Source of the DNA: a virus
Length of the DNA: 28,017 nt
UHGV virus genome: UHGV-0120697
Reading direction: 5' to 3' (one strand)
This document shows positions 6,082 through 14,886 of this stretch, piece by piece (the stretch's first letter is position 1; each line of letters opens with the position of its first letter). Under the pieces are notes generated by a model. The model searched no databases and was not told where the DNA came from. It was given only the letters and a program-made list of their open reading frames with translations. The translations under genes and the position numbers were made by a program.

Positions 6082-6198
6082 AGTATGCCGTTCTCACAAA
6101 AAAACCGCTTGCCATGCCGCAATCAGTCAGGTTACATTTCCGCTGCACCTCATAAAACGGGTGCCGGGATTGGAACCCCGCTGACTATGCACGCGCAC

Positions 6199-6220
6199 AA
6201 CCGCGCCAGCGGTTTTTTTG
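6199..6220 (+). terminator. Intrinsic terminator-like hairpin AACCGC-GCCA-GCGGTT followed by T7
   Basis: Stem-loop plus U-tract read directly, inside a roughly 340-bp region with no convincing ORF. Confidence 0.4.
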
Positions 6221-6274
6221 TGCGTACCGTATCGCCACGTCTTTTTCGCGTCAGAATTATGGTGGGGCGTATGG

Positions 6275-6371
6275 GGCCGACTTCGGTCGGGCCGGATTCG
6301 TGCGTAGCCGGTAGTTCCAACCCTGTACGTCTCACCACCCCGAGCTTGGAACCTCTGGATGGTGAGTTTTT
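6275..6371 (+). ncRNA. Candidate structured RNA: UUCG-tetraloop hairpin (6275-6293), helix GTTCCAA/TTGGAAC (6314-6320 with 6346-6352) crossing helix CTCACCA/TGGTGAG (6331-6337 with 6360-6366), then T5
   Basis: Complementarities read directly. ORFs on both strands here translate to low-complexity, non-protein-like sequence. Function unknown. Confidence 0.3.
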
Positions 6372-6398
6372 AAAACTTACTACGTACGAGGCCACCCC

Positions 6399-6629
6399 AT
6401 GGCAAACCGCAAACAACAGCGCGCATACGCTGCGCGTCGTCACATCCAGACTGAAATCAACCGCAGACTTTTCCGCGCATTCCGCGTCGCGCATATCATG
6501 CACATCAATATGCTGCATGAGCGCAGCCACGCACTATCAAACATCTATTCCGCCGCTGTTTTCAGCTATCTGGCGGATGATCTGCGCGAGCTTCAACAGC
6601 TCATCCAGCAGCAAAACAAACTCCATTAA
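6399..6629 (+). CDS. Hypothetical small basic protein
   Basis: ORF with a GAGG RBS directly after the structured non-coding region; weak support. Confidence 0.35.
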   Translation: MANRKQQRAYAARRHIQTEINRRLFRAFRVAHIMHINMLHERSHALSNIYSAAVFSYLADDLRELQQLIQQQNKLH

Positions 6630-6701
6630 TTCCTGTTCCGGGCCTTTCCTGCACCTTGCGGCGGGAGGCCTTCGCACATCTGTAACAAGAGGATTGCCGC
6701 A

Positions 6702-7067
6702 ATGATTCTCGCCAACGACTTTCTTGAATACCTGCTCAACACAGAACGTGATCTTGCCGCTCGCGTGCGTGATCGTTATGACATGTACCTGAAATCCCTG
6801 CCTGTACCGCAGCTCGCTGACGGAAAGATTGTTATTGATGGTCGCTACATGATTGACAGCCACGAGGGAAATTACAGGCTTTACCGCATTGAAGGTGGCA
6901 CCCCGTCCGTTATTGGCATTTACCAGCGCCCATCCTCTGCAATCGTCGATGTGATTGCCGACAGCATCCGCATCACACATCGCCATGCCGACACAGAAGA
7001 CACCGTGCTGGAAATTCAGCGGCTGGCTACAGTCTGCCGCGACACCCTGAATGGCATGACGAAGTAA
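6702..7067 (+). CDS. Hypothetical protein immediately upstream of the replication gene
   Basis: ORF in the operon orientation; ends 7 nt before the A start. Confidence 0.5.
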   Translation: MILANDFLEYLLNTERDLAARVRDRYDMYLKSLPVPQLADGKIVIDGRYMIDSHEGNYRLYRIEGGTPSVIGIYQRPSSAIVDVIADSIRITHRHADTEDTVLEIQRLATVCRDTLNGMTK

Positions 7068-7073
7068 ATCACT

Positions 7074-9896
7074 ATGACGGCAGAGTACATCAGGGACTGG
7101 CAACAACCGCGCCACGCAGTAGGACGTGAAGGAACGGAGATCCCCGCACCTGAATCCGCACTTTCCTCCTGGCTGGATGCCTACCGGGCAGAGAACGAAC
7201 GCCGCCAGGAAATGGCTGATGCGGCGTTCTCCGCCACACCGCTGGGCAACCTGATTAATAAAAGCCTGGACGCACAGGAAAAACAGGACAAAACCATCAC
7301 ACTGGCAGGAGACGCCAGAAAACGGGCACGCGGCGCGGTGGATGAAGCCATGGCCTCGCTGCGCCTGCTGCCGTCCTATCTGCGCGATCCGCTTATTCGC
7401 CACCTCTCCTTCCTGCGCAAAAAACAGGAAGCCGATCGCCGGAAAGGCAAAAAGAGCTGGCAGGCGGAACGCTATGCACGCGGAACCCTGCGCAAAATAT
7501 TCGAACGTCTGGATCGCACTGACAGACGCTGGCTGACACCGGGTTATCGCTCCCTTGCCGGACGCGAACGCCTGGACGATTTGCTTTACCTGCCGCAGCT
7601 CAACAAACACCAGATACAGACGCTGGCCACCATGACGGCGGCGATGTTCAGCAGCACCTTCGAAAAACTCTGCGATGGCTTTGGCGCGACTGATGGCGAA
7701 CTGACCATGGATGTAACGCTGAAGGCGTATCAGATGCTGGCCCGCATGGCGTTACACCTGCACGCCATGCCTCCACATTATGACGCACTGACAACAGACA
7801 AAGACCGGAGGAACGAACCGGACACGGAGCTGCTGCCGGGCGCAATCCTCCGCCTGACCTGTGCGGAATGGTGGAAACGCAAACTGTGGCTGTTACGTTG
7901 CGAGTGGAGAGAAGAACAACTCCGCGCCGCCTGTCTGGTTTCCAGAAAAACATCGCCCTATCTGAGCCAGGACGCGTTAAGCGAGTTTCGCGCACAGCGC
8001 GAGAAAACACGCGATTTCCTGAAAAGTTTCATGCTGGAAAATGAAGACGGGTTCACGATTGATCTCGAGACGGTGTATTACGCGGGAGTAAGTAACCCGG
8101 TTCACCGTAAGGCAGAAATGATGGCCACCATGAAGGGACTGGAACTTCTGGCCGAAGCCCGTAGCGACAGAGCGGTGTTTCTGACCGTCACCTGCCCGTC
8201 AAAATACCACGCAACAACGGAGAACGGTCATCCGAACCCCAAATGGAACGGGGCCACCATGCGCGACTCCAGCGATTACCTGGTTAACACGTTTTTTGCG
8301 GCAGTCCGCAAAAAACTGAACCGCGACGGCCTGCGCTGGTATGGCATCCGCACGGTGGAGCCTCACCATGACGGCACCGTGCACTGGCATATGATGGTCT
8401 TTGCTCATCCGGAAGAAATCGACAGCATCGTGGCCATCACCCGCGATATTGCCATTCAGGAAGATCGTCACGAACTGGGCGATGATATTACTCCGCGCTT
8501 TAAGGCGGAGTATGTCGACGGCTCAAAAGGCACACCAACCAGCTATATCGCGACCTACATCGGAAAAAACCTGGACAGCCGCGCCGTAGATGGCATCGAC
8601 CCGAAAACGGGCAAGCCACGCGTTGACCACGAAACCGGAAAATCAATGGCCGAGAGCGTGGAGCGCGCCATTGGCTGGGCGCGTCTTCATCGGGTCCGCC
8701 AGTTCCAGTTCTTTGGCATCCCCTCCCGTCAGGTATGGCGTGAACTCCGCCGCCTTGCCAGCCAGATGGCACGCAACCCGGAAGGCCCGCAACGGCTGAA
8801 GGATGATGCAATGGATGCGGTACTCGCTGCCGCTGATGCCGGGTGTTTTGCCTCCTACATTGAAAAACAGGGTGGCGTGCTTGTTCCACGCAAGGACTAC
8901 CTGATTCGCACCGCCTACGACCTCGCAGATGAGCTGAACGATTACGGCGAACAGAGCGTACAGATTTACGGGATCTGGTCACCACTCATCGGGGAATCCT
9001 CCCGTGTGTGCACGCATCCGGATAACTGGAAGTTGGTAAGACGTAAACCAGAACCAGAAGACAACGCCCGCGAAAATGGTTTTGACCTTCAGGGCGGCCA
9101 TGCCGCCCCTTGGACTCGTGGCAATAACTGTCCCCGTGTACAGGAAACGGACAACAACGGGACAGAACAGCCGGAAGAACGGCCAGCACCGTGGCCGCAG
9201 CTTCCTGACGGCGTTGACGTGAACGAATGGATGCGCTCACTGAAACGGCACGAACGCCGGGCGCTGATGCGTTCGCTTCGTGACAAACAGGCAAAAAACA
9301 GCAGTGATGAAATGCAGAGCTGGACACAGAGCCGCAAACAGCAGCGGCCTTTGCCTGATAACCACGAATTACTCGCTAAAGAATGGCGGGAATCTGCCGA
9401 ATCTCTCGGCCTGCATATCGGTGAACAGCAGATGCAGCACCTGTTACGGGGCGGCAGTCTGTACGTTGACGGCAGCATCATTGCACCGCAGGGATTTGAA
9501 ATTGTACGCAAACCGGATACCCGACCGGACAGCCGGATCACGCAGCTCTGGCAGCGCCTGAGCCGTAACCACGGCGTAAGCAGTACGGAGATCCGCCATA
9601 ACCCGGTCGCCAGCTATCTGGAACAGCTGAGGGCATCAGACCCCGAAGCCGCCGCACGCCTGGCATCCACACTTCAGCAAGACCAGAACACCATGAAAAC
9701 ACCCGTTACCGTGCTTTCTGACATGCTGCGCGCCATCCGCGACGCAGAGCACGCACAGAGAATCAGTGAAACCACTGAACGCGCCCGCCGCAAAGCAGAC
9801 CTGCTGCGGGGTGGCCTGACCAGTGGAAACAAAAAACAGACAGAAACGGGATTCACAAATCCCGTAAATGAGCAAAAAACGCGCCGCGATATATGA
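7074..9896 (+). CDS. A: Rolling-circle replication initiator, gpA family (HUH endonuclease)
   Basis: HUH motif (TVHWHMMVFAH) and paired active-site tyrosines (TSYIATYIGKN); position after the early operon as in P2. 940 aa, longer than P2 gpA (about 760 aa), with a C-terminal extension. Confidence 0.9.
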   Translation: MTAEYIRDWQQPRHAVGREGTEIPAPESALSSWLDAYRAENERRQEMADAAFSATPLGNLINKSLDAQEKQDKTITLAGDARKRARGAVDEAMASLRLLPSYLRDPLIRHLSFLRKKQEADRRKGKKSWQAERYARGTLRKIFERLDRTDRRWLTPGYRSLAGRERLDDLLYLPQLNKHQIQTLATMTAAMFSSTFEKLCDGFGATDGELTMDVTLKAYQMLARMALHLHAMPPHYDALTTDKDRRNEPDTELLPGAILRLTCAEWWKRKLWLLRCEWREEQLRAACLVSRKTSPYLSQDALSEFRAQREKTRDFLKSFMLENEDGFTIDLETVYYAGVSNPVHRKAEMMATMKGLELLAEARSDRAVFLTVTCPSKYHATTENGHPNPKWNGATMRDSSDYLVNTFFAAVRKKLNRDGLRWYGIRTVEPHHDGTVHWHMMVFAHPEEIDSIVAITRDIAIQEDRHELGDDITPRFKAEYVDGSKGTPTSYIATYIGKNLDSRAVDGIDPKTGKPRVDHETGKSMAESVERAIGWARLHRVRQFQFFGIPSRQVWRELRRLASQMARNPEGPQRLKDDAMDAVLAAADAGCFASYIEKQGGVLVPRKDYLIRTAYDLADELNDYGEQSVQIYGIWSPLIGESSRVCTHPDNWKLVRRKPEPEDNARENGFDLQGGHAAPWTRGNNCPRVQETDNNGTEQPEERPAPWPQLPDGVDVNEWMRSLKRHERRALMRSLRDKQAKNSSDEMQSWTQSRKQQRPLPDNHELLAKEWRESAESLGLHIGEQQMQHLLRGGSLYVDGSIIAPQGFEIVRKPDTRPDSRITQLWQRLSRNHGVSSTEIRHNPVASYLEQLRASDPEAAARLASTLQQDQNTMKTPVTVLSDMLRAIRDAEHAQRISETTERARRKADLLRGGLTSGNKKQTETGFTNPVNEQKTRRDI
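9846..9865. promoter_or_regulatory. 20-bp palindrome ACGGGATT-CACA-AATCCCGT (copy 1, inside the 3' end of A)
   Basis: Perfect 8-bp inverted arms; an identical-arm copy lies 73 bp downstream. Confidence 0.5.
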
Positions 9897-9918
9897 AGCG
9901 CGCATAAAACAGGCAAAA

Positions 9919-9938
9919 ACGGGATTTCAGAATCCCGT
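9919..9938. promoter_or_regulatory. 20-bp palindrome ACGGGATT-TCAG-AATCCCGT (copy 2, 35 bp upstream of the parM-like start)
   Basis: Same arms as copy 1; both copies preceded by AAAACAG and followed by AAA(T/C)GA; positioned as an operator or centromere-like site. Confidence 0.5.
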
Positions 9939-9972
9939 AAACGATTAATTAATCAACATAAGGAAAAGCGAC

Positions 9973-10932
9973 ATGAAAATTTGTATCGATGACGGCTCCA
10001 CCAACATCAAGCTGGCATGGACTGAGAACGGCGAACGCCGCAACGCCATCAGCCCGAACAGCTTCAAGTCGGAATGGTCTGCGCCGTTCGGTGGCACGCA
10101 GCCCGCGAACTACATGCTTGATGGCGTGCGCTATGGTTTTGATCCGGTCAGCGATCGCTTTGTCCAGACGACTGACACGCAATACCAGTACAGCGATGTG
10201 AATGTCATTGCCATTCATCACGCGCTGGTCAAATCAGGCATCACGCCACAGGAGGTGGATGTGGTTGTCACCCTGCCACTGAGCGAGTATTTCGACACAA
10301 ACGCACAGCCGGACATAGCCAACATCAACCGCAAAAAAGCGAACGTTATGCGCCCGGTGGAGTACCAGAACGGCGAAGCATTCACTATCCGTAACGTACG
10401 GGTTATGCCTGAATCCATTCCGGCTGGCTTTAAGGCACTGGCTGACATGAGTCCGTTTGAATCCCTGCTGATTGTGGATTTAGGCGGAACCACGCTGGAT
10501 GTGGCAAAGGTTCAGGGACAACTGGCAGGTATCAGCCAGGTGTTTTGCGATCCACACGTAGGCGTTTCCCTGATGGCCGATGCCGTACTGTCGGTGATGG
10601 CCACTAACGGTATGCGTACCAGTCACCACATCGCCAATACCATTATCGAACATCGCCATGATGAAGCCTGGCTGCGCCAGCACATCCACAATGACGCGCA
10701 TTACGCCAGCCTGATGGCGGTTATTCGTGAAAAGGAAGAAACACTGAAACAACGCGTGATCCGCGCGCTGGCGGGTTTTTCGGGTTACGGGCGGGTGATG
10801 GTTGTCGGTGGCGGGGCAGAGATTGTGGCACCCGCTATCCGCGAAGCCTGCGGAGTTAATGCGACTTTCATCGCGGACGGGGTGCCACAGTTTGCTCTGG
10901 TTAATGGGCTGTACGCAATGGGCAAGGAGTAA
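9973..10932 (+). CDS. parM: Actin-like segregation ATPase, ParM/StbA family
   Basis: Actin-fold motifs: phosphate-1 (IDDGSTNIKLAW), phosphate-2 (VDLGGTTLD), adenosine (VVGGGAEIVAP). N-terminus closely resembles plasmid R1 ParM as recalled from memory (not searched). Confidence 0.7.
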   Translation: MKICIDDGSTNIKLAWTENGERRNAISPNSFKSEWSAPFGGTQPANYMLDGVRYGFDPVSDRFVQTTDTQYQYSDVNVIAIHHALVKSGITPQEVDVVVTLPLSEYFDTNAQPDIANINRKKANVMRPVEYQNGEAFTIRNVRVMPESIPAGFKALADMSPFESLLIVDLGGTTLDVAKVQGQLAGISQVFCDPHVGVSLMADAVLSVMATNGMRTSHHIANTIIEHRHDEAWLRQHIHNDAHYASLMAVIREKEETLKQRVIRALAGFSGYGRVMVVGGGAEIVAPAIREACGVNATFIADGVPQFALVNGLYAMGKE

Positions 10933-10936
10933 ACCA

Positions 10937-11248
10937 ATGACGACACCAACCAGACGGATAAGTTTCTATCTGAAGCCCGCCGCCGTCAAGAACGAAGGCG
11001 AAGCATGCGCCTGGCTGGACAGCCTTACACCAGAAGCCCGCAAAAGTGGTCAACGCGTGGCTTTTCTGGCCGGGCTGGCACTACTGAAAATGAATCCGGC
11101 AGAGGCTTACCGACTGGCTGCATGGGCTGATGATGAGGCGTTATCAATGACACAAACCAGGACAGAACGCCCCGCGTCACAGCCAGTATCAGCCGCACAG
11201 ATAACCAGTCAGATGGCCGGAAATATCCGGGCGTTATTTCCCGAATAA
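10937..11248 (+). CDS. parR: ParR-like small DNA-binding adaptor (ribbon-helix-helix type)
   Basis: Directly downstream of the ParM-like gene with an AAGGAG RBS; N-terminal RRISFYLKP...LDSLTPEAR...AFLAGLALLKMNP and C-terminal NIRALFPE resemble R1 ParR as recalled from memory. Confidence 0.55.
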   Translation: MTTPTRRISFYLKPAAVKNEGEACAWLDSLTPEARKSGQRVAFLAGLALLKMNPAEAYRLAAWADDEALSMTQTRTERPASQPVSAAQITSQMAGNIRALFPE

Positions 11249-11253
11249 CACAA

Positions 11254-11277
11254 CATCAGGGCGCATCCGCCCTGATG
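11254..11277 (+). other. Perfect 10-bp-stem hairpin (CATCAGGGCG-CATC-CGCCCTGATG) between the parR-like gene and the next operon
   Basis: Read directly; no U-tract, so a processing, stability or protein-binding role is as likely as termination. Confidence 0.45.
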
Positions 11278-11311
11278 ACTTTAACCCGGGAGCATAAACA
11301 AGGGGGACACA

Positions 11312-11644
11312 ATGCAACACATTGACAGAGAAAAAGCGCAGCGACTGATTGAGCGGATGGAAGCGCTGGCGAAAGAAGAAAATGTCAACATCCAAAAAAT
11401 AGCTGAATGTGGCCAGATAGTTCTTCGTCGTGAAAAAGACCTCAAACAACTGATGTCTGGCGAAACCAGCAAAACATGGACTTCAGGCGAGAAGACGGTT
11501 TATTGCAGCTTCTGCAATAAATCCCAGTACGAAGTCACAAAGGTGATTGCCGGACCGTCTGTTTACATCTGCAATGAGTGCGTGGATTTGTGCAATGAAA
11601 TTATCAGGAAAGAAGTGACAGACAAAAAGGAAAAAAACGCATGA
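11312..11644 (+). CDS. Small protein with a ClpX-type C4 zinc-binding domain (host ClpX N-domain mimic)
   Basis: C-terminal [38 protein letters not shown] has the C-x2-C-x18-C-x2-C spacing and is near-identical to the E. coli ClpX N-terminal zinc-binding domain as recalled from memory. No AAA+ module follows. Confidence 0.6.
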
Positions 11645-11955
11645 ACAGAAAACAGAAACAAGAGTTGAAATACTTCTTACGTAAAGAAATTGCCAGGCTT
11701 GAAGATGCAGAGTCACAATCATCAGAAATTCCGTTCGGAATGGATATCAACGACGCCCGTATGCTCCAGGCATACCGCATAGCTCAGGCTGCACTACAGG
11801 CAAAACCGTCAGATGGACTGGTTAGAGCAGTACATTTCTATGAACAGGTAAAGCGTGAGAATCCGCCAGTCGAAACCGGAGCATGGAAAGACGCTGTTGA
11901 CTGGGTGCTCAAAGAGGCTTGCCAGTCTGTAAACATTGGCATCAAAGGAGAGTGA
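11641..11955 (+). CDS. Hypothetical protein (operon gene 2)
   Basis: ATGA-coupled to the upstream gene; ends ...IGIKGE with the stop inside a 17-bp repeat. Confidence 0.5.
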
Positions 11956-11957
11956 GA

Positions 11958-12449
11958 ATGCAAATTTCACCGGTTACTCTTCGTGTTGCGAAGGCGTTTA
12001 TATCCAGACATCACCGACACAATAAACCCCCGGTGGGGCATAAATTCAGCATTGGTCTGAGAAATGATGCCGGAGAATTGATAGGTGTGGCGACAGCCGG
12101 TAGACCTGTTGCACGACATTTGGACGATGGATTAACGCTTGAAGTAAATCGCACATGTACCACAGGAGAACGCAACGCTAACAGCGCGCTTTATGGTGCT
12201 GTCTGGCGGGCAGCAAAGGCTATGGGTTATCAACGTTGTATTACGTACACCCAGGCAGATGAATCAGGAGCATCTCTCCGCGCAGCTGGTTTTGTTCGTG
12301 TGAAAGAGCTTCCTCCAAGAAAAAGCTGGGCGGAATCAAGCGTCGCCCTGCGGAGTAAACGCGATCCGGTCGGAAACGGTGGTGTTCCTCGTGTGCTCTG
12401 GGAAATCAGGAGAATGAGTACCACTGGCATTCGCATCAAAGGAGAGTGA
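11958..12449 (+). CDS. Hypothetical protein (operon gene 3), basic/His-rich N-terminus; possible acyltransferase-like fold
   Basis: ATG 2 nt after the upstream stop; ends ...GIRIKGE with the stop inside the second copy of the 17-bp repeat. Fold assignment is a weak impression only. Confidence 0.45.
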   Translation: MQISPVTLRVAKAFISRHHRHNKPPVGHKFSIGLRNDAGELIGVATAGRPVARHLDDGLTLEVNRTCTTGERNANSALYGAVWRAAKAMGYQRCITYTQADESGASLRAAGFVRVKELPPRKSWAESSVALRSKRDPVGNGGVPRVLWEIRRMSTTGIRIKGE

Positions 12450-12450
12450 T

Positions 12451-12714
12451 ATGGCAACTTTGACAAAAAAAGAACAAGCATGGTTGAGCGAATTACAGGA
12501 CGTTCTTGATCGCTGTCCATCACCGAAAAAAATTGGTTTTTACACCATTGGCGATAAAAGCATTTACCTGTATGACCTGCGCCGCATGGATGAAATCATG
12601 GAGGCTCTTGATAATCGTTCGTCAATGGATTGGTGTGTTGCTGTCCATGATATGAATGCAGGGTTTGATGAAAAGATTTTGTTCCCCTCATCAGTTGAAA
12701 GCACAGCAGGATAA
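12451..12714 (+). CDS. Hypothetical small protein (operon gene 4)
   Basis: ATG 1 nt after the upstream stop; followed by a strong terminator. Confidence 0.5.
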   Translation: MATLTKKEQAWLSELQDVLDRCPSPKKIGFYTIGDKSIYLYDLRRMDEIMEALDNRSSMDWCVAVHDMNAGFDEKILFPSSVESTAG

Positions 12715-12750
12715 GGACCCAGCAAATATACACAACCTATAAAACACTAA

Positions 12751-12774
12751 AGCGCCTCAGGGGCGCTTTTTGTT
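12751..12774 (+). terminator. Rho-independent terminator (AGCGCC-TCAGG-GGCGCT + TTTTTGTT)
   Basis: GC-rich stem-loop with a U-tract 36 nt after the last operon stop. Confidence 0.65.
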
Positions 12775-12801
12775 TGCACAAAAGTGCACAAATTTGCACA
12801 A
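12775..12801. repeat. Three direct TGCACAA repeats at exact 10-bp phasing (12775, 12785, 12795)
   Basis: Read directly; helical-repeat spacing suggests a protein-binding array (iteron- or centromere-like, or a packaging-protein site). Confidence 0.55.
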
Positions 12802-13172
12802 TTTTTTTGAACGACTTTTTACCCTTCCGGCCCGCATGGCGGCTGGATCCGTCAAGGATCCGTGCGTGCACAAAAAAACGCGCTTTTTCTGCGCGCAGGT
12901 GACGGGGGAACAGCCCGCGTTTCAGGGGGTAAATAGCATTCCCTGAACGATGTCGCAGAGACACAACAGAATGGCCATATTTCTCACGCTGAGCATGAAA
13001 AAGGCGTGAGGGCTTTTGATTTGATGGGGTGAAAGGTAAGGCCGTCAAAATCGCACTGAGGCAGCGAGAACATACAGTCAACGCGGTGGAATTGCGTAAG
13101 AGTCTGACCGTCGATGGTGGCGATAAACTGGAAGGCGTCGTGAAATTATCTGATTGATACAGGAGCTGGAGA

Positions 13173-13201
13173 GCCGGGGCATAAATTTTTTATGCCCCGG
13201 C
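13173..13201. other. Near-perfect 29-bp palindrome GCCGGGGCATAAA-TTT-TTTATGCCCCGGC
   Basis: 13-bp perfect inverted arms read directly in the non-coding stretch between the accessory operon and the orphan gene; candidate protein-binding or cos-associated site. Confidence 0.4.
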
Positions 13202-13300
13202 GAAGCAGCAGACAAGCGAAGCGCGTCAGCGATACGGCACCTTGCCGACCATACTTCATAAGTGCAAAATACGAGCAAAGAAATCAATGGAGGCTGTCTT

Positions 13301-13825
13301 ATGGTCATTAATTACAAGCAGTTAAGAGAAAAACGGGAGCAGGTAAAGGAGAGCTTTCGCCGCAATGAAGATCTGACCCCGCTTGTACGCCTTGCCCAGG
13401 GCATTGTTGATGCTTATGAAATCTCGCTGGAGCTGCCATCACAGACCTGGACAGATAGCGACGGTAATCGCCAGCATTACGTTTCATGCGGACTGGAAGC
13501 AGCCGAAGGATTTCGCAGAATGCCTTTATCCCAGATCCCTGCCGCTACCCCCAAAGCACGGGGCAGCAATGATGAGCGAAAACTGACTTTTAGTATTGAA
13601 ACGGTGGTTGACGACACACCTGGCGAAGTCGCGTTCGTGCACACGCCTGTTTCGATCGCAATGTATAACGATGAAATACAGGTTCGCGTTAATAATAATA
13701 TCGTGCCACTTAAAGAAGGTAATTCACCCTACACCACCGTTTGTGAAGCCATTCAATATTACGTTCTCTCTGAAATTGATAATCTCAAGCCTGACGGCAC
13801 CCAGAAAATGGTTCAACTCTGGTAA
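13301..13825 (+). CDS. Hypothetical protein (orphan gene next to the portal gene)
   Basis: ATG at 13301 preceded by GGAGG (track start 13262 is a GTG); ends at a bidirectional terminator; no recognised domain. Confidence 0.5.
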   Translation: MVINYKQLREKREQVKESFRRNEDLTPLVRLAQGIVDAYEISLELPSQTWTDSDGNRQHYVSCGLEAAEGFRRMPLSQIPAATPKARGSNDERKLTFSIETVVDDTPGEVAFVHTPVSIAMYNDEIQVRVNNNIVPLKEGNSPYTTVCEAIQYYVLSEIDNLKPDGTQKMVQLW

Positions 13826-13831
13826 AAAGGA

Positions 13832-13856
13832 CAGCCCCATCACGGGGCTGTTTTTT
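13832..13856. terminator. Bidirectional intrinsic terminator (CAGCCCC-ATCAC-GGGGCTG) shared by the orphan gene (+) and portal gene Q (-)
   Basis: Stem-loop with T6 on the plus strand and a T-rich tract on the minus strand; the Q stop codon lies in the loop. Confidence 0.55.
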
Positions 13857-14886
13857 CATCAAGAAGAGCATAAGAGTTAAAACGGATCACCTCTTCGCCA
13901 AGCCAGTCATTGATGTGCTTCATAGCCTCCATGACGGGCATCAGCTCGTTAATTGCGTAAACCCGCGCTGCCTTCTCCACATCGCCAAACGCACTTTTTT
14001 CGCCCGGCATCGCCCCCATCAGTTGCGGCGGAACGCGGTGCGCAGCCAGCACATCATCACGGGATGCCGCCTTAACATTCATGAATTCATCTTTTGCGGT
14101 GATCTGCTGGAACGGCAAAATTTGCACCCCCTCTTTGCCCCCGTTGGGCGCATGAATGAGCACGTTTTTAAACGCACCACCACCACGTGCCCCCTGTAGC
14201 GTTTCTTTCAGGGAGTCCATGCTTTCGCGGTTTACCTGCGCTGCACCGATGTAGATGATGCACCCGGCGTGGGATCCGTTGTCGTAGTACAGTTTTCTGA
14301 ACATGTCCGCCGAATGAGAAAGGCTGGCCGAGAGTAATGCGCCAAGATATTCCGGCATGCCGTAGATTTCCTGGTTAATATCCGGATTCATCAGGTGGCA
14401 CACTTTGCCAGGACGAAACTGAAACGCGTCCTTGCCATCCTGCACATACCACCATGATTCAAGATCGCTTCCGCGTCGCATGTATTTCGCCAGGGCGTGC
14501 CGTAATTTAAGCGGTTCGCCGAGCATATTGCTTCGAAGCTCAAGGAATGCGTTACCGAACACAAACCAGTCCAGCGCCAGCGCCGAGAAATCCTGCCGGG
14601 AAAGCAGCGGGTGCGGGATGTAGCAACCGAGTAATACATTGCGCTTAAAGTAAAGCGCAGACTGATGCCAGGACGTTTGCCGGGCTGCTCTTGCCAGACC
14701 GTACCAGTCCACCGGGGTTTCATACCACCGCCCGTTATCAGCACAGTACATATTGTCCAGCAGGTCATGCCCGGTCAGGCGATAAGGACCATCAAATGTG
14801 AATGCACTGAGCGATGATTCTTTCCTGAGCGCATCAGCGAGATCAATGCGTGAACTCATGCGCACTTTTTTATTTTTTCTGCTCAT
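13840..14886 (-). CDS. Q: Portal protein, P2 gpQ-like
   Basis: About 348 aa, size and position match P2 gpQ; downstream of and overlapping the terminase gene on the same strand. Confidence 0.9.
   Translation of the reverse strand: MSRKNKKVRMSSRIDLADALRKESSLSAFTFDGPYRLTGHDLLDNMYCADNGRWYETPVDWYGLARAARQTSWHQSALYFKRNVLLGCYIPHPLLSRQDFSALALDWFVFGNAFLELRSNMLGEPLKLRHALAKYMRRGSDLESWWYVQDGKDAFQFRPGKVCHLMNPDINQEIYGMPEYLGALLSASLSHSADMFRKLYYDNGSHAGCIIYIGAAQVNRESMDSLKETLQGARGGGAFKNVLIHAPNGGKEGVQILPFQQITAKDEFMNVKAASRDDVLAAHRVPPQLMGAMPGEKSAFGDVEKAARVYAINELMPVMEAMKHINDWLGEEVIRFNSYALLDEKTAP

Follow-up and report, generated by a model that had tools for sequence, protein, structure and literature searches.

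The 28,017-nucleotide viral genome UHGV-0120697 (this whole stretch is referred to here as the window) is a P88-type (Xuanwuvirus) prophage of the P2 family from Escherichia coli. Between its replication and portal genes it carries a block of four same-strand genes, designated g1 to g4, which a first-pass annotation had described as an insulated operon and proposed as a candidate for an undescribed system. Our analysis indicates, with good confidence, that the block is a mosaic of separately exchangeable accessory genes that forms the variable far end of the rightward early/maintenance transcription unit in a P88-like prophage. It would consist of a backbone-linked gene, g1, followed by cassettes from the accessory pool of lambdoid early-left ("exo-xis/ea") regions, and the products would act separately. 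We observed directly that the genes have a mosaic distribution, that a linker repeat surrounds g3, that variants lacking g3 exist, that products can be assigned to families, and that no promoter-like site follows the hairpin at the head of the block.

In order to determine how the four genes are distributed, we surveyed 41 P88-like viral loci carrying g1, 80 viral loci carrying g3, and 5,426 complete E. coli genomes. All four genes were found together in 5 of the 41 g1 loci and in 5 of the 80 g3 loci. Fourteen of the g1 loci had no g2; the other 27 had the N-terminal half of g2, joined in four cases to a different C-terminus. g4 was present without g3 in six g1 loci, and the combination of g2, g3, and g4 was seen in five only. 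Of the E. coli genomes, 112 carried g1, 154 carried g3, and 979 carried g4; 30 had the whole block, with a coverage of at least 80%. Most g3 loci proved to be lambdoid early-left regions, running from the recombination genes to xis/int, in which g3 lies beside Ead_Ea22; its neighbors vary and include Ead_Ea22, dATP/dGTP pyrophosphohydrolase-DUF551, DUF3850, and others. The position of g4 directly 3' of g3 was common among the closest relatives (32 of 43 loci in which g3 is at least 98% identical), rare at 92 to 97% identity (3 of 17), and absent below 92% (0 of 18). g4 was absent altogether from all six g3 loci in Edwardsiella, Klebsiella, and Cronobacter. That the g3-g4 adjacency fades with divergence suggests a recent linkage and not a conserved partnership. 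Neither co-occurrence nor co-linearity of the four genes was maintained across diverged relatives, and none remained once g3 was less than 92% identical. g1 lies at a fixed distance 3' of parR in 39 of the 39 P88-like loci that were readable there. The idea of one system therefore gave way under independent assortment, in which g1 is kept with the P88-type backbone and g2, g3, and g4 are swappable cassettes.

Inspection of the gene boundaries revealed a direct repeat (family D1; 37 nt, 84% identity, 494-nt spacing) that brackets g3 exactly, each copy spanning the end of one gene, a Shine-Dalgarno sequence, and the start of the next. Both g2 and g3 end in IKGE-stop. The linker, which reads ...ATCAAAGGAGAGTGA(N1-2)ATG, encodes the C-terminal KGE-stop of one gene and carries the ribosome-binding site of the next, its core ATCAAAGGAGAGTGA being the source of the Shine-Dalgarno sequence for the following gene. 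A Shine-Dalgarno-like sequence is present directly 5' of each of the four starts. If the two copies recombined, the 494-nt g3 cassette would be lost, and the g2|g4 junction expected from this event was found exactly in two loci (L087 and L088). In phages Kapi1 and 689R5 this linker stands ahead of different cassettes, and a 15-mer from it occurred 115 times in 71 of the 136 loci collected. The linker would thus provide homology for the gain and loss of cassettes. Modular exchange at conserved gene-boundary sequences is classical in lambdoid phages, and the block is a case of such exchange that reaches into a P2-family genome.

The lambdoid exo-xis/ea accessory genes (Ea22, Ead, orf61/63, etc.) include homologues of g3, of g4, and of the C-terminal g2 module, which in P22-like and lambda-like phages lie between the recombination genes and xis/int, beside Ead_Ea22 genes. 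The block resembles that region in having small, tightly packed, translationally coupled open reading frames (ORFs) with conserved boundary sequences. It differs in that the cassettes are in a P2-family phage, 3' of parMR and g1, and not in the lambdoid pL operon. The G+C content changes along the interval: 55 to 57% in A and parMR, 42 to 47% in g1 and g2, about 50 to 54% in g3, and 41% in g4. Positions 11200 to 12800 match Escherichia phage PhiR44_2, and several E. coli chromosomes as well, with 100% identity. Phage P88 is 97% identical over the left half of this interval and, of the block, carries only g1 and a g2 variant. Literature searches on PhiR44_2 and on P88 and ParM gave nothing of relevance.

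g2 is itself chimeric. Its N-terminal 55 amino acids are found only in P88-like phages, and its C-terminal 49 amino acids, which include the terminal IKGE-stop, form a module common to several unrelated lambdoid early-region proteins (83 to 96% identity). The distributions recovered by tblastn with each half alone differed, and the matches to phrog_26213, phrog_660, and phrog_250 fall in the C-terminal half only. Another protein that carries this module has an N-terminal Ead_Ea22 domain (PF13935). g2 itself matched no Pfam or NCBIfam model, PF13935 included, and a search of PDB sequences gave no informative match, the solved C-terminal domain of lambda Ea22 included. The g2 product would be a chimeric coiled-coil protein, in which the C-terminal module is mainly a sign of a recombination joint.

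The coordinates of the block and its surroundings are collected in Table 1. The four ORFs were exactly as first annotated, both in length and in spacing (an ATGA overlap, then gaps of 2 nt and 1 nt). The perfect 10-bp hairpin at 11254-11277 was likewise borne out (folding free energy, -18.6 kcal/mol; z-score against shuffled sequences, -3.9), and a strong terminator does follow g4 (folding free energy, -21.4; z-score, -4.6). Its stem starts at 12749, so that the span of 12751-12774 given previously was displaced by an immaterial 2 nt. This terminator ends the plus-strand transcription unit. It is at the upstream boundary that the description of a self-contained, insulated operon failed. On the plus strand, the hairpin is followed by ACTTTAACCC and has no U-run, and a terminator scan flagged it as terminator-like on the minus strand only; lacking a U-run, it is unlike an efficient intrinsic terminator. 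The same hairpin was present, almost invariant and at the same distance 5' of g1, in 39 P88-like loci, whose near-identity at this point leaves no variation from which covariation could be judged. A simple sigma-70 consensus scan, which over 9800-13900 returned 3 sites against 4.1 expected by chance, placed none of them between the hairpin and g1 (11249-11311). A hairpin with no U-run and the lack of a promoter-like site leave insulation unsupported and make read-through the simplest explanation. The hairpin is probably an RNA stem-loop or a partial attenuator within a longer transcript, not an insulator, and expression of the block would probably depend on transcripts that run on from parMR or the early operon, with the translation of its genes coupled.

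Table 1. Features in and around the four-gene block (window coordinates, except for the Kiwa rows, which give positions in the named Klebsiella prophage loci)
Feature	Position	Strand	Description
gpA-like replication gene	7074-9896		
parM	9973-10932		between A and block
parR	end at 11248		between A and block
Stem-loop	11254-11277	+	perfect 10-bp stem, 4-nt loop, between parR and g1
g1	11312-11644	+	110 aa
g2	11641-11955	+	104 aa
Linker repeat copy 1	11934-11970	+	CATTGGCATCAAAGGAGAGTGAGAATGCAAATTTCAC; g2 end, Shine-Dalgarno, g3 start
g3	11958-12449	+	163 aa
Linker repeat copy 2	12428-12464	+	g3 end, Shine-Dalgarno, g4 start
g4	12451-12714	+	87 aa
Intrinsic terminator	12749-12777	+	9-bp GC-rich stem 12749-12769, then TTTTTGTTT
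187-aa ORF	13262-13825	+	phrog_5091, function unknown; no Pfam match
Portal gene	13840-14886	-	terminase genes also on - strand
Kiwa, L146 and L147	3796-5381	-	
Kiwa, L148	1755-3340	-	

The block had been assigned to the slot between A and Q, which holds tin and old in P2. This placement stands, with the correction that parM and parR lie between A and the block. That the slot is a variable cargo hotspot was also confirmed: 38 P88-like loci showed 22 different distances from g1 to the portal gene, the shortest 849 bp and the longest 2462 bp, and relatives carry other cargo there, including a phd-doc toxin-antitoxin pair and Ead/Ea22 genes. In the window itself, about 500 bp with no long ORF follow the block, and the 187-aa ORF beyond them is further cargo, situated in the interval between terminator and portal and present only in some P88-like relatives. 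The block thus shares with tin/old and other P2-like A-Q (cos-proximal) cargo both its slot and a content that varies among relatives. It differs in that its products are homologous to neither Tin nor Old and match no PADLOC model, and in that its content is several independent cassettes and not one system. The suggestion of a defense or anti-defense function found no echo in a profile scan of PADLOC-DB 2.0, in which no family matched g1 to g4, ParM, or ParR at an E value of 1 or below. Rfam and tRNA scans gave no match inside 11254-12774.

g1 comprises a helical N-terminal region of about 55 amino acids and a ClpX-type C4 zinc-binding domain (ZBD). The latter matched Pfam zf-C4_ClpX (PF06689) with an E value of 6.8e-18 and 64.7 bits, above the 27-bit gathering cutoff, and g1 also matched phrog_6797. 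The best-known relative is the N-terminal ZBD of E. coli ClpX (PDB 1OVX and 2DS5-8). Against 1OVX the E value was 6.9e-20, and identity over the domain, counted from the alignment, was about 79%. The aligned part, residues 58 to 104, keeps the four Cys ligands (CSFC...CNEC) and the equivalents of the hydrophobic-pocket residues F16 and I46, through which the ClpX ZBD docks lambda O, SspB, RssB, and trigger factor (PMC7804408). g1 differs from ClpX in being phage encoded beside parMR, in its own N-terminal extension, and in having no AAA+ module: no ATPase module was found in its 110 amino acids, and the full-length ClpX models TIGR00382 and NF003745 scored 51 and 49.5 bits, against cutoffs of 371 and 359, over model positions 3 to 54 only. 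Full-length relatives of g1 came only from prophages of Escherichia and Salmonella. A homologue with 36% identity, in which the N-terminal extension is also conserved, is carried by a distant P2-like phage (L125), where a parR remnant interrupted by an internal stop precedes it. parM is absent there, which indicates that g1 is not ParM dependent.

Literature searches found no published function for a phage-encoded free ClpX-ZBD protein. On the strength of its similarity to ClpX, g1 would be a free ClpX N-domain, dimerizing with the ClpX ZBD or competing against it for adaptors and ZBD-dependent substrates, and would thereby reprogram the turnover of phage or maintenance proteins by ClpXP. It may thus be a phage decoy of the ClpX N-domain that steers the host protease ClpXP so as to spare certain phage or maintenance proteins or to target them. 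We also considered g1 as a Com-like activator of g3 and rejected this possibility: no alignment to Mu Com was obtained at an E value of 100 or below, the zinc finger of g1 is of the ClpX type, and g2 separates g1 from g3.

A phd-doc pair adjoins g1 in four P88-like loci (L103, L112, L114, and L115; 4503-5266, minus strand), with E values of 3.5e-11 for Pfam Fic and 8e-7 for PhdYeFM. A phd-doc pair (58% and 29% identical) also lies beside the g1 homologue of L125 (2825-3630). The Phd antitoxin of P1 is a ClpXP substrate. The adjacency may mean that the ClpX-ZBD protein is functionally connected with maintenance proteins that are labile to ClpXP, and we regard it as a lead only.

The first-pass annotation had recognized no domain in the block beyond the ZBD. 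In addition to the C-terminal half of g2, which is shared with Ead/Ea22-type proteins, g3 could be assigned to a family. It matched the NCBIfam model NF045478 ("XF1762 family protein") over residues 3 to 136 with 204.7 bits (cutoff, 50) and an E value of 5e-61, and phrog_1384 ("Mom-like DNA modification protein") with an E value of 4.4e-42. The match to Pfam Mom (PF25680), over profile positions 3 to 124 of 202, scored 22.4 bits (E value, 1.1e-4), under the cutoff of 27.1, which some XF1762 relatives do pass (27.3 to 32.5 bits). An AlphaFold2 model built from a 42-sequence alignment (predicted local distance difference test [pLDDT], 90.5) has GNAT topology. When compared with the PDB by Foldseek, its top match was Mu Mom (8BV8; E value, 6.3e-8; TM-score, 0.68 to 0.71), with generic GNATs close behind. 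The g3 profile aligned by hhalign to an assembled nine-member Mom alignment with a probability of 98.8% and an E value of 7e-16. A PDB sequence search did not find Mom, either with the single g3 sequence or with the 42-sequence profile; pairwise BLAST against Mu Mom was marginal (E value, 0.25), and hhalign against a single Mom sequence gave 0.026. The homology was visible only by fold search and by profile-profile alignment with the Mom family.

Mu Mom is a Gly-tRNA(Gly)-dependent GNAT that makes N6-carbamoylmethyl-adenine in double-stranded DNA, and its fold is common to g3. The two also have in common the motifs E-[LV]-N-R and R-N-x-x-S, and g3 has, at the corresponding point of the fold between beta6 and beta7, an insertion that is a candidate equivalent of the one in Mom. 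In Mom, R111, S124, D149, and R151 are essential and Y159 is important, an HTH-like (helix-turn-helix-like) insertion of about 35 amino acids (residues ~175 to 209) is needed for activity, and the enzyme uses charged tRNA, a dependence on Gly-tRNA having been reported (PMC13219725). In g3, R65 corresponds to R111 and is invariant in the family, and S76 corresponds to S124 and is nearly invariant. The g3 insertion (residues 119 to 144) occupies the same position between beta6 and beta7 as that of Mom, is basic, contains a conserved W124, and was modeled with a pLDDT of 61 to 67. g3 differs from Mu Mom in its length (163 against 241 amino acids, with no N-terminal extension of about 39 residues), in having no com gene, and in belonging to an early and not a late transcription unit. 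These profile and fold comparisons show that g3 is homologous to Mom, though they do not make it a proven member of the narrow Mom family as biochemistry defines it.

The XF1762 GNAT family is large (3,313 clusters at 50% identity). Its members include fusions to a D12 N6-adenine DNA methyltransferase, a C5 DNA methyltransferase, a PAPS-reductase domain, the YodL and LPD28 polyvalent-protein domains, and DUF6884 (representatives P0389, P0428, P0490, P0463, and P0473), some of which could be gene-calling artifacts in metagenomes. The fusions fit a theme of nucleic acid modification and counter-restriction and are not proof of it. No report on XF1762 was found in literature searches. g3 would be a Mom-family GNAT that moves an acyl or aminoacyl group to nucleic acid, probably DNA, as a counter-restriction modification. 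More broadly, the XF1762 GNATs may be a second, minimal Mom-like class that forms a DNA or RNA adduct unlike momylation, early in infection, for counter-restriction. We put the chance that at least one of the two proposals holds, the minimal Mom-like class or g1 as a decoy of the ClpX N-domain, at somewhat below even. As a separate observation, in Microbacterium phage Dropshot (L140, 295-1028) a Mom-like acetyltransferase gene lies between a ParB-like nuclease-domain gene and a tRNA-Gly(ccc) gene. The presence of this tRNA gene fits the Gly-tRNA dependence of Mom (PMC13219725).

g4 belongs to an 87-amino-acid family limited to Enterobacteriaceae prophages (an ORFan). Structure prediction gave a confident model of a small alpha/beta protein; fold searches found no structural neighbor, and a PDB sequence search gave no informative match. 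Remote-homology and structure analysis thus placed g3 with Mom and the GNATs and returned no PDB fold match for g4, which would be an independent small effector. Two apparent g4 homologues were rejected, namely an Edwardsiella 88-aa gene and a Klebsiella 87-aa gene that seemed to be split from g3 by Kiwa; both are unrelated. The Kiwa system itself (KwaA/KwaB) lies about 300 bp 3' of an XF1762 homologue in Klebsiella prophages L146 to L148. Its location beside this homologue indicates that the early-left region with g3 homologues is also a landing site for defense systems.

We considered whether the four genes might nevertheless form one self-contained, undescribed defense or anti-defense system in the slot equivalent to tin/old. 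The compact, coupled, same-strand ORFs that end at a strong terminator would suit such a system, as would their location in a real cargo hotspot; the four products are functionally uncharacterized, and none belongs to a characterized housekeeping or structural family. We judge this very unlikely. The genes assort independently both in viral contigs and in E. coli genomes (the block in 30 against 112, 154, and 979 for g1, g3, and g4), linker repeats bracket g3 and natural variants lack it, and there is neither a promoter-like site nor a PADLOC match. A narrower proposal, that g3 and g4 form a two-gene module in which a Mom-like GNAT is paired with a small regulator, specificity factor, or inhibitor, loosely as in com-mom, with g1 and g2 as unrelated neighbors, draws on the start of g4 1 nt after g3 and on its place directly 3' of g3 in 32 of the 43 loci with g3 at least 98% identical. 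It is unlikely, though less so than a four-gene system. The adjacency is lost with divergence (3 of 17, then 0 of 18, and 0 of 6 in other genera), g4 is six times commoner than g3 in E. coli and is found right after g2 or Ea22 genes with no g3, and at least six other gene families are found 3' of g3. The least probable of the readings that we weighed is that g3 is the GNAT toxin of a type II toxin-antitoxin system (TacT/AtaT-like, acetylating charged tRNA), with a neighbor as antitoxin, forming an addiction or abortive-infection module by parMR. A GNAT of 163 amino acids is of toxin-like size, Mom itself uses charged tRNA (PMC13219725), and a phd-doc pair occupies the same slot in sibling phages; however, g3 has variable neighbors, with no conserved antitoxin-like gene among them and no ribbon-helix-helix or helix-turn-helix gene upstream, many lambdoid early regions carry it on its own, and TacT and AtaT were outside the top 50 fold matches, in which Mom ranks first.

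Several points weigh against a mosaic of separately acting genes and against the activities proposed for them. Tight translational coupling, including the ATGA overlap, is also expected of a functional operon. Most of the closest relatives have g3 and g4 side by side, and the genomic data are compatible with a facultative partnership. The simple sigma-70 consensus search could miss a weak, activator-dependent, or non-sigma-70 promoter. The functions of g1 and g3 come from homology only. For g3, no equivalent of Mom Y159 is present (it aligns with L107), the alignment of D149 and R151 is ambiguous (Q99 and D101 by hhalign, or D101 and S103 in a manual "ADE" register), and the insertion between beta6 and beta7 has 26 amino acids against the roughly 35 that are essential in Mom.

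Some further features of the window lie outside the block. Rfam matches above the gathering score were obtained for the Hfq-binding RNA isrK (67 bits; 6145-6219, plus strand) and for C4 antisense RNA (80 bits; 6255-6342, plus strand), inside or overlapping a regulator-like ORF of 206 amino acids (6085-6705). The arrangement resembles a P1/P7-type immI (c4-icd-ant) module, here within a phage of the P2 family. A 20-nt palindrome, ACGGGATT-N4-AATCCCGT, occurs in two copies 73 nt apart, one (9846-9865) in the last 51 nt of the gpA-like gene and the other (9919-9938) in the spacer just 5' of parM; both are candidates for parC/ParR operator sites or for terminators. Directly 3' of the terminator, at 12775-12802, are three TGCACAA repeats with a spacing of about 11 nt, which could be a protein-binding site or part of the cos-proximal region.

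Each component of the block is in a catalogued family, and identical copies are present in RefSeq as "ClpX C4-type zinc finger protein," "XF1762 family protein," and hypothetical proteins. As a system, the block is of limited importance, being one more mosaic accessory array already annotated in dozens of E. coli genomes, and novelty rests on g1 and g3 as single genes, not on the array. The window shows very cleanly how lambdoid and P2-family phages trade cassettes through a linker that is both coding sequence and ribosome-binding site, and the cassette is present in some natural variants and missing from others. Only recently was the chemistry of Mom worked out (PMC13219725), and the much larger branch of short XF1762 proteins could also modify nucleic acids. 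A phage-encoded free ClpX ZBD could reveal how temperate phages tune host proteolysis.

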